A DNA stretch of 38,484 bases, from the IMG/VR virus record IMGVR_UViG_2718218100_000014, one strand, 5' to 3'. Below, piece by piece: positions 36,001 through 38,484 of this stretch (positions within the stretch are counted from its first letter, which is position 1; each line of letters starts with the position of its first letter). The DNA comes from a virus (taxonomy: Duplodnaviria > Heunggongvirae > Uroviricota > Caudoviricetes). A program made the position numbers.

Positions 36001-38484
36001 CCTCCGGTTAAGGATGGAAGAGAGTATCTGTTCCACGAATCAGCGGTAAAGGTTGACTTAAATCGACCAGTAACAGGTAGCCTTTTGAAGAGGATCAGAA
36101 ATGGGAAGAAGGCGAAGTCATGAGCGCCGGGATTTACCCCCTAACCTTTATATAAGAAACAATGTGAACCGCCCCGGGTTTCCTGGAGAGTGTTTTATCT
36201 GTGAACTCAGGCTGCCAGATCATCGTTTCCGATGGAAGCATAATAAGCTTTTTCTGCTTCTGCCGGAGGAGTATGGCCCAGCCTTCCCAGCAATCGTCGA
36301 TTGTTATACCAGTCCACCCACGTTAGTGTGGCCAGTTCCACTTCTGCACGGTTTTTCCAGCTCTTACGGTGTATTACCTCCGCTTTGTAAAGACCATTGA
36401 TGCTCTCAGCCATCGCGTTGTCATACGAGTCGCCTGTACTCCCTGTTGATGCCAGTAATCCGGCTTCTTTTAGTCGCTCCGTATAGGCCAGTGACACATA
36501 CTGAGAGCCTTTATCGCTGTGATGGATGGTGCCAGACGGACGACGGGCCCACAACGCCTGCTCCAGCGCATCCAGCACGAATGTCGTTTCCATAGACGAT
36601 GAGACCCGCCACCCCACGATGTATCCGGCAAACACATCAATGATAAACGCCACATAGACGAAGCCCTGCCATGTGCTGACGTAAGTAAAATCAGCCACCC
36701 ACAGCTGGTCAGGTCGTTCTGCCACGAACTGACGGTTTACGCGGTCGCCTGCGGCAACGGCTTTCCGGCTGATGGTCGTACGGACCTTTTTACCCCGGAG
36801 AACACCGGCAAGTCCCATAACCGCCATGAGACGTGCCACTGTACATCTGGCCACCCTGATTCCTTCCCGTAACAACTGACGCCAGACTTTACGCACACCG
36901 TACACCTGATGATTTTCATCGTATACGCGCTGTATCTCTCTCTTCAGCCAGTCGTCGTGCTGCGCACGGGCACTGCGTTTATCCGGATGATGTCGCTGTT
37001 GCTGACAATGGTAATACGTTGACGGGGCAATATGCAGTTCGCTGCATACCGGTCCGACCCCGTACTGCTCACGCAGCTTATCCAGCAGTGGCATCATTTT
37101 TTCCAGAGGCGGTCGAACTCCGCCTTCGCAAAATAAGCGGAAGCCTGGCGAAGGATATCGTTACTGCGGCGCAGTTCACGATTTTCACGTTCCAGCTCTT
37201 TCAGACGCTGACGTTCAGCGCTGGTGAGCCCACCATCACCGCCCCCGGTATCCCGCTCATGCTGGCGAACCCAGACACGCAGAGTCTCCGGCGTACAGCC
37301 AATCTTTGGGGCAATGGAACAAATTGCCGCCCACTGTGAGTCATATTCATCCTGACTTTCCAGAACCATACGAATCGCCCGCTGACGGACTTCGGGGGAA
37401 AAACGAGTATTTTTAGTCATCCTGTTTACCTCTTTCTCAGGGAGTTTAGTCTCCAGGATTTCCGGGGCGGTTCAATGGATATTACTGCTACAGGGACCCA
37501 AGGACGGGTAAAGAGTTTGGTTTAGGCCGAGACAGGAGGATAGCAATCACTGAAGCAATACAGGCCAATATTGAGTTATTTTCAGGACACAAACACAAGC
37601 CTCTGACAGCGAGAATCAACAGTGATAATTCTGTTACGTTACATTCATGGCTTGATCGCTACGAAAAAATCCTCGCCAGCAGAGGAATCAAGCAGAAGAC
37701 ACTCATAAATTACATGAGCAAAATTAAAGCAATAAGGAGGGGGCTGCCTGATGCTCCACTTGAAGACATCACCACAAAAGAAATTGCGGCAATGCTCAAT
37801 GGATACATAGACGAGGGCAAGGCGGCGTCAGCCAAGTTAATCAGATCAACACTGAGCGATGCATTCCGAGAGGCAATAGCTGAAGGCCATATAACAACAA
37901 ACCCGGTCGCTGCCACTCGCGCAGCAAAATCAGAGGTAAGGAGATCAAGACTTACGGCTGACGAATACCTGAAAATTTATCAAGCAGCAGAATCATCACC
38001 ATGTTGGCTCAGACTTGCAATGGAACTGGCTGTTGTTACCGGGCAGCGAGTTGGTGATTTATGCGAAATGAAGTGGTCTGATATCGTAGATGGATATCTT
38101 TATGTCGAACAAAGCAAAACAGGCGTAAAAATTGCCATCCCTACAACATTGCATGTTGATGCTCTCGGGATATCAATGAAGGAAACACTTGATAAATGCA
38201 AAGAGATTCTTGGCGGAGAAACCATAATTGCATCTACTCGTCGTGAACCGCTTTCATCCGGCACAGTATCAAGGTATTTTATGCGCGCACGAAAAGCATC
38301 AGGTCTTTCCTTCGAAGGGGATCCGCCTACCTTTCACGAGTTGCGCAGTTTGTCTGCAAGACTCTATGAGAAGCAGATAAGCGATAAGTTTGCTCAACAT
38401 CTTCTCGGGCATAAGTCGGACACCATGGCATCACAGTATCGTGATGACAGAGGCAGGGAGTGGGACAAAATTGAAATCAAATAA

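Follow-up and report, generated by a model that had tools for sequence, protein, structure and literature searches.

The lambda-type integrase gene (int) in the stretch of DNA analysed here, a 38,484-nucleotide Caudoviricetes record (IMG/VR IMGVR_UViG_2718218100_000014; the whole stretch is referred to as the window), is interrupted by an insertion sequence (IS) of the IS629/IS1203 type. The surrounding element corresponds to prophage Sp3 of Escherichia coli O157:H7 Sakai, a defective lambda-like prophage named CP-933K in EDL933. The explanation that we favour, with a probability of about 0.9, is that an intact IS629 transposed into int of an Sp3/CP-933K-type prophage and duplicated the target ATG. 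This insertion would have been the third hit on the prophage and a late one, following the loss of the repressor, the replication genes and the portal.

The boundaries computed from the sequence define an insert of exactly 1310 bp. Its termini, TGAACCGCCCCGG... at the left and ...CCGGGGCGGTTCA at the right, are complementary at 22 of the 25 outermost bases, and the ends TGAACC.../...GGTTCA form 5'-TG...CA-3' imperfect terminal inverted repeats. The length falls within the IS3-family range of ~1.2-1.55 kb. The target duplication is 3 bp long, and a longer duplication is impossible. The parts of the insertion are as follows, with the strand given where one applies:

36162..36164: left copy of the target duplication, ATG (boundary computation)
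36165..37474, minus strand: IS629/IS1203 (IS3 family), apparently intact, with transposase genes antisense to int (length, inverted repeats, 100% identity to annotated copies)
36165..36189: terminal inverted repeat at the orfB-distal IS end, TGAACCGCCCCGGGTTTCCTGGAGA (22/25 complementary to the opposite end)
37450..37474: terminal inverted repeat upstream of orfA (boundary computation)
37420..37094, minus strand: orfA, 108 amino acids, helix-turn-helix N-terminal transposase part (open reading frame call, PF01527)
37097..36207, minus strand: orfB, 296 amino acids, DDE (rve) catalytic part; OrfAB would comprise 404 amino acids through a -1 frameshift with orfA (open reading frame call, PF00665, Prokaryotic Genome Annotation Pipeline (PGAP))
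37023..37139, minus strand: ALIL pseudoknot containing the A6 slippery run at 37097-37102, where orfA and orfB overlap (RF01497; A6 from the sequence)
37475..37477: right copy of the target duplication, ATG (boundary computation)

The overlap of orfA and orfB at the A6 run follows the layout of the IS3 family, with consecutive open reading frames (ORFs) that would be joined by a -1 frameshift. The ALIL frameshift pseudoknot is complete (Rfam RF01497, model positions 1-117) and scores 121.5 bits against a gathering threshold of 50. Pfam domains were found in both products: HTH_Tnp_1 (PF01527, E = 2.4e-12) in that of orfA, and rve (PF00665, E = 9.3e-28) with HTH_21 (PF13276) in that of orfB. All 1310 bp are 100% identical to many plasmid and chromosome copies in E. 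coli, Shigella and Salmonella that carry the NCBI label 'IS3-like element IS1203 family transposase', and the identical copy in O157:H7 strain F6667 is annotated by PGAP as a 'programmed frameshift' coding sequence (CDS), WP_171877072.1. The name IS629 is assigned through this match to NCBI IS1203-family annotations, with the equivalence of IS1203 and IS629 taken from the literature and not from an ISfinder reference; the two are treated there as one element (PMC3271280; bioRxiv 10.1101/2023.06.07.543989). IS629 is described as 1.31 kb long, with a target duplication of 3-4 bp and without a target consensus, and as present in ~20 copies per O157:H7 genome, 62% of them in prophages (PMC3271280; bioRxiv 10.1101/2023.06.07.543989).

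The element in the window is thus a member of IS629/IS1203, in the IS3 family, with every family feature that could be tested present. It shares with IS629/IS1203, the dominant insertion sequence of O157:H7, the 1310-bp length, the TG...CA ends, the imperfect repeats, the orfA/orfB pair with ALIL, the 3-bp target duplication and the preference for prophages, and in itself it shows no differences. A 3-bp target duplication likewise borders each of seven other related insertions whose flanks are contiguous; of these, five are in int genes and two are in the tape-measure gene. An initial annotation made from the sequence alone had described a 1310-bp IS3-family, IS629-like insertion with clear terminal inverted repeats, an overlapping transposase ORF pair and a flanking ATG duplication; all of this was confirmed, and the outcome that it named as speaking against it, repeats and size that match no IS in the databases, is the opposite of what we found. 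The copy looks intact and potentially active, judging from its sequence.

The insertion falls at int nucleotide 64, after the first base of codon 22, within the arm-DNA-binding domain, so the split after codon 21 noted previously is correct. The reading frame is separated by 1313 bp. The affected genes are:

35905..36123, plus strand: xis, excisionase, intact, 72 amino acids; its 3' end overlaps the int start (ORF, full-length PF07825, E = 3.9e-41)
36101..36164, plus strand: int 5' fragment, codons 1-21 and the first base of codon 22 (ORF and boundary computation)
37478..38484, plus strand: int 3' fragment, from the remainder of codon 22 to the stop (ORF, Pfam, comparison with lambda Int)

Joining 36101..36164 to 37478..38484 yields a stop-free ORF of 1071 bp encoding 356 amino acids, in agreement with the earlier claim that removal of the IS restores a continuous lambda-like int. 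The restored protein is identical to lambda Int at 353 of 356 positions over its full length (PDB 5j0n/1z1g), differing by H164P, A245T and I248V. It contains the domains PF09003 Arm-DNA-bind_1 (1-69), PF22022/PF02899 (81-171) and PF00589 Phage_integrase (179-345). None of the known catalytic residues of lambda Int (R212, K235, H308, R311, H333 and Y342) is among the three substitutions. As it stands, the gene lacks the uninterrupted frame of a lambda-type tyrosine integrase and is a pseudogene. In F6667, PGAP labels the corresponding 63 bp 'phage integrase Arm DNA-binding domain-containing protein, incomplete'. The excisionase was likewise called intact in the initial annotation, and its product is annotated as excisionase WP_001303849.1 in all relatives. 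The module resembles that of lambda in the restored Int, in the full-length Xis and in its attachment locus, the lambda attB region, and differs from it by the interruption and the three substitutions.

With the IS in place, full-length Int would no longer be made. The earliest in-frame start in the 3' fragment is at 37714 (Met101), and any product of this fragment, the longest starting at Met101, would be without the arm-binding domain and without part of the core-binding domain. Going by the biology of lambda Int, excision that depends on Int and Xis would be lost. A chimeric 99-amino-acid Int'-IS read-through ORF was searched for and is not on record.

The window aligns with Sakai Sp3 over 36,163 bp at 99.98% identity, with 6 single-nucleotide polymorphisms (SNPs) and one 1-bp indel. 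In F6667, whose genome is closed, the int end adjoins ybhC in the lambda attB region, beside gal and bio; integration between ybhC and ybhB is deduced from these flanks, as the window ends at the int stop codon. Beyond int, the prophage shows the following features:

1..3742, minus strand: type III effectors nleH1 (1-882), nleC (1709-2728) and nleB2 (2762-3742), with nleD just beyond the window (coordinate mapping to F6667 and Sakai annotations)
32336..32337: junction of a 7,425-bp deletion of the immunity, replication and early-left region, with ninE fused to a 5'-truncated bet (alignment to the O55:H7 DEC5A prophage)
20255..21836, minus strand: portal gene with a +1 frameshift (extra T at 20741), in fragments of 374 and ~111 amino acids (compared with the intact 502-amino-acid DEC5A portal)

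Relative to DEC5A, the deletion at 32336/32337 has removed ninB, a ren-like gene, P, O, cII, cro, cI, cIII, kil, gam and the 5' part of bet. The portal is annotated as two 'phage portal protein' CDSs in relatives. The missing immunity region, the frameshifted portal and the remaining effectors had all been noted in the initial annotation and are all present as described. Sakai Sp3 has a disrupted Int, is Xis+, is without CI/Cro and O/P, is portal-defective, and undergoes no circularisation, replication or packaging (PMC2669165). The window shares with it and with CP-933K the ybhC/ybhB site, the gene order, the 7.4-kb early-region deletion and the portal frameshift; it differs in int, which in Sakai and EDL933 has a 4-bp deletion and no IS, and in the window has an IS and wild-type flanks. 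The evidence thus supports the view that the window holds a cryptic prophage with effectors; that it is immobilised is inferred for this strain and fits the Sakai Sp3 data (PMC2669165). Such a prophage would persist as a fixed carrier of nleB2, nleC, nleH1 and nleD.

The order in which these defects arose can be read from related strains. O55:H7 DEC5A retains the immunity and replication genes, the portal and int. In O157:H7 TR01, whose whole prophage was read, int is intact while the 7.4-kb deletion and the split portal are already present. EC4115 and DEC4E also combine an intact int with a split portal, in the stretches read. The int lesion is accordingly the latest of the three defects and lineage-specific.

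The initial annotation had proposed PCR across the junctions in related strains as a check on whether the insertion is fixed. We mimicked this junction PCR in silico with 5,426 complete E. coli genomes. The reconstructed empty site (300 bp) was found at ≥80% coverage in 1,969 genomes, with 100% matches in O157:H7 TR01 and O55:H7 DEC5A. The 240-bp left junction was found as a single uninterrupted piece in 1/5,426 genomes, that of F6667. Between F6667 and the window there are 3 SNPs, and F6667 has a second IS629, located in the tape-measure gene; the filled allele therefore exists in at least two strains. The exact junction had no match in IMG/VR, JGI metagenomes or GTDB species representatives. 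The insertion is rare and not fixed, and the relatives have either an intact site or a 4-bp deletion. A published catalogue of 47 IS629 sites, drawn from Sakai, EDL933, EC4115 and TW14359, has none in Sp3 (PMC3271280). The site is new against this catalogue, and insertion and excision of IS629 in O157 prophages are already well documented.

The int gene of Sakai Sp3 is annotated as a pseudogene and contains no IS. Its xis-int region and that of the window with the IS removed are identical over 1267 bp, save for a 4-bp deletion in Sakai. The lost bases are ATGG (equivalently TGGA or GGAT), with AT on both sides as a 2-bp microhomology, and they overlap the target duplication at 36162-36164. The chance that a random indel falls at the IS target is ~1e-4, given 37 kb that otherwise differ by the 6 SNPs and the 1-bp indel. 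We typed the alleles by the exact strings GAAACAATGGATATTAC (intact), GAAACAATATTAC (scar) and GAAACAATGTGAACCGCC (filled), which gave three groups:

Intact allele: O55:H7 DEC5A, O157:H7 TR01, EC4115, DEC4E, O145 RM11626
Filled allele: the window, F6667
Scar allele: Sakai, EDL933, F6321, 2571, ERL04-3476, NZRM4165, Z1832

At ≥99% identity the scar allele was found in 212 records, the listed examples of which are all O157:H7 or closely related; it was verified in Sakai and EDL933. The direction of change would be from intact to filled to scar, because transposition cannot restore the four lost bases. For the same reason derivation of the filled allele from the scar allele was ruled out.

Three prophage SNPs, at window positions 15611, 18919 and 21444, were polarised with O55:H7. 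DEC5A, TR01 and EC4115 have the ancestral haplotype G/C/T, and DEC4E has C/T at the last two positions and a deletion covering 15611; all four of these strains have an intact int. Sakai has a private derived base at 15611 together with the scar allele. The derived pair 18919A/21444G occurs in the window and F6667, which are filled, and in F6321, ERL04-3476 and NZRM4165, which carry the scar. Strains 2149, 2571, 7636, DEC4E, F6321, F6667, Gim1-1 and NE92 have a truncating mdfA mutation in common and are grouped on a whole-genome tree (PMC10758439). The placement of F6667 in this clade is based on that study (PMC10758439) and on the three prophage SNPs; in a search of 25 kb of backbone, one SNP only separates the groups. 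The clade thus contains the full series, with DEC4E intact, F6667 and the window filled, and F6321 and 2571 scarred, and the scar also occurs outside it, in the lineage-I strains Sakai and EDL933. Insertions in the tape-measure gene were considered as a clade marker for F6667, ERL04-3476 and NZRM4165 and were rejected, since their positions and orientations differ, as do those of a fourth insertion in DEC4E.

These observations suggest that the filled allele is probably the precursor of the int pseudogene of Sakai and EDL933, and that the 4-bp deletion is the footprint of IS629 excision. As expected of an excision footprint, the ATGG loss overlaps the target duplication and is bordered by the AT microhomology. 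A later, imprecise excision of IS629 would have rejoined the ends at these 2 bp with loss of ATGG, and would presumably have been promoted by the IS-excision enhancer IEE, which O157:H7 carries. The case resembles published IEE-promoted excision (stx2::IS1203v reactivation; lacZ::IS600 in O121:H19) in that an IS3-family element sits in a gene in an enterohaemorrhagic E. coli (EHEC) background, and in that related strains have either a restored gene or a small deletion where the element had been inserted. It differs in that excision is deduced here from comparative genomics, and in its fixed, apparently recurring 4-bp loss, whereas the published events are mostly precise. Provided that the scar is irreversible, its presence both inside and outside the F6667 clade would mean that the footprint arose at least twice, unless recombination moved alleles between strains. 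On balance we give an even chance to the same footprint having arisen two or more times in separate O157:H7 lineages. More tentatively, and at somewhat less than even odds, the window may represent a nearly extinct intermediate behind the int pseudogene of the reference strains, with a recurrent identical footprint and possibly precise restoration elsewhere.

Several points weigh against this interpretation. The link between IS and deletion is drawn from a positional coincidence and a phylogenetic pattern, and the lineage argument consists of three prophage SNPs, one backbone SNP and one published sentence. The affected stretch of int is a hot region for IS629, with two independent insertions 2 bp apart in a CCCCC run, so independent events at one site are less improbable than under a uniform model. 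Prophage genes of O157 undergo gene conversion, and recombination between strains could move alleles. A 3-bp target duplication should favour precise excision, and a repeated imprecise outcome needs explaining. Finally, a second lambda-type prophage might provide Int in trans and so still mobilise the element.

Perhaps the IS629 of the window and F6667 lineage is instead recent and private, and ATGG was lost by replication slippage between the AT repeats of AT-GG-AT, with the overlap being a coincidence or the mark of a hot or fragile site. The 2-bp direct repeat that flanks the deleted bases is able to support slippage, many IS629-family insertions have independently hit the 5' part of int, two of them 2 bp apart, and the intact int of all ancestral-haplotype Sp3 strains fits a late arrival of the IS in one sub-lineage. 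We nevertheless regard this as unlikely, as the deletion and the target duplication coincide to the base within 37 kb that hold otherwise only six SNPs and one 1-bp indel. The same 4 bp would also need to have been lost by slippage in two independent events, one in the F6667 clade and one in lineage I, exactly where an IS is observed, and a 2-bp repeat with 2-bp spacing is no known strong slippage hotspot. Within the F6667 clade, moreover, the scar is found in the nearest relatives of the filled strains and the intact allele in a more distant member.

Somewhat less probable still is an early insertion, by which the ancestor of typical O157:H7 was already int::IS629 and the intact and scar alleles are the products of precise and imprecise excision, respectively, so that prophage excision would be reversibly locked at this site. 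One insertion with repeated excisions would then suffice, and excision is frequent in iee+ O157 strains according to the literature. Precise excision of IS1203v and IS600 that reactivates a gene is documented, and the intact and scar alleles are indeed scattered over lineages I and I/II and the F6667 clade. A late insertion is simpler, however: the ancestral-haplotype strains are all intact and the filled allele was seen with the derived haplotype only, none of the 47 catalogued IS629 sites is in Sp3 (PMC3271280), and O55:H7, which is almost without IS629, has the intact allele. That the insertion is an artefact of assembly or window construction, a repeat collapse or misjoin of the kind for which the ~20 IS629 copies of an O157 genome are a classic source, can practically be dismissed, given the clean junctions, the perfect 3-bp duplication, the flanks that rebuild the exact ORF and the same junction in F6667, an independent closed genome with 3 SNPs and one more IS relative to the window.

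Independent IS629-family insertions were also observed in int genes of five other genomes. They are located at nucleotide ~39 of the lambda-type int in AUSMDU00014361 (target duplication CCC), at ~41 in O157:H7 Z1832 (CCC; a 95%-identical variant in the opposite, sense orientation, on the scar allele), at 139 in N32 (CTG), at 189 in NZRM4165 (GCC, on the scar allele) and at ~570 of a divergent int beside mdtA in UTME-9 (TGC). Five of the six int sites, that of the window included, are within the first 190 nucleotides, in a search that reached ~620 bp from the int start. An apparent antisense bias among the first five int insertions was an artefact of joining same-strand pieces, and the Z1832 copy is in the sense orientation. 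The window has an intact tape-measure gene (12041-15136, minus strand), whereas four distinct insertions of the IS629 family are found in this gene among related strains: at the equivalent of window 13570-72 in F6667 (target duplication ATG), at ~12672 in ERL04-3476, at ~12600 in NZRM4165 (a 95% variant), and in DEC4E, where 12863-17682 is deleted next to the insertion. IS629 has been highly active on the prophage in this sub-lineage.

Other differences among the relatives concern the state of the prophage. EC4115, TR01 and DEC4E have a fully intact int (WP_000533643.1) and xis on an otherwise defective prophage, and Sp3 of the O157:H7 lineages with an intact int may still be able to excise, unlike that of Sakai. 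The O55:H7 DEC5A prophage keeps cI, cro, cII, P, gam, bet, exo, the whole portal and the whole int, and has defects of its own, in that its O gene is frameshifted and its protease/capsid fusion gene contains an internal stop; because of these, prophage decay in O55:H7 and O157:H7 was independent. In O145:H28 RM11626, int is intact and a 96%-identical IS3-family element lies upstream beside ren without a target duplication (AAT/TCC), which suggests that the stretch separating ren from the ea genes was lost in a deletion adjacent to the IS. TR01 Sp3, nearly identical to the window in the remainder, differs from it by two dense SNP patches at 4902-5278 (tail-fibre, ~30 differences) and 25783-26216 (lysis genes, ≥27). 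These patches resemble tracts of gene conversion with other lambdoid prophages as donors, and they call for caution in SNP-based prophage phylogeny. Position 935 of the window, between nleH1 and nleC, is C5 in the window and F6667 and C6 in Sakai and TR01; besides the int site, no other indel separates the window from Sakai over 37 kb, and this one could serve as an additional marker of the F6667 sub-lineage. The nin region and Q are separated by a moron, the lipid A 3'-O-deacylase gene lpxR (29514-30473, plus strand), which adjoins a truncated second antiterminator fragment and is found in all relatives including O55:H7.

Taken alone, the insertion is one more routine IS629 insertion in an O157:H7 prophage and an extra hit on an already defective element. 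The series of filled, empty and scarred alleles at one site gives the int frameshift of the most-studied EHEC genomes a testable origin and provides a natural example of the traces left by an IS-excision enhancer. Both the junction and the footprint can serve as simple lineage markers. As int stays intact in EC4115, TR01 and DEC4E, the mobility of nleB2, nleC, nleH1 and nleD may vary by lineage. If the footprint is truly recurrent, imprecise excision of IS3-family elements would have a reproducible, sequence-determined outcome in nature, and IS629 would restrain the mobility of an effector prophage in the manner of a lock that is in part reversible.

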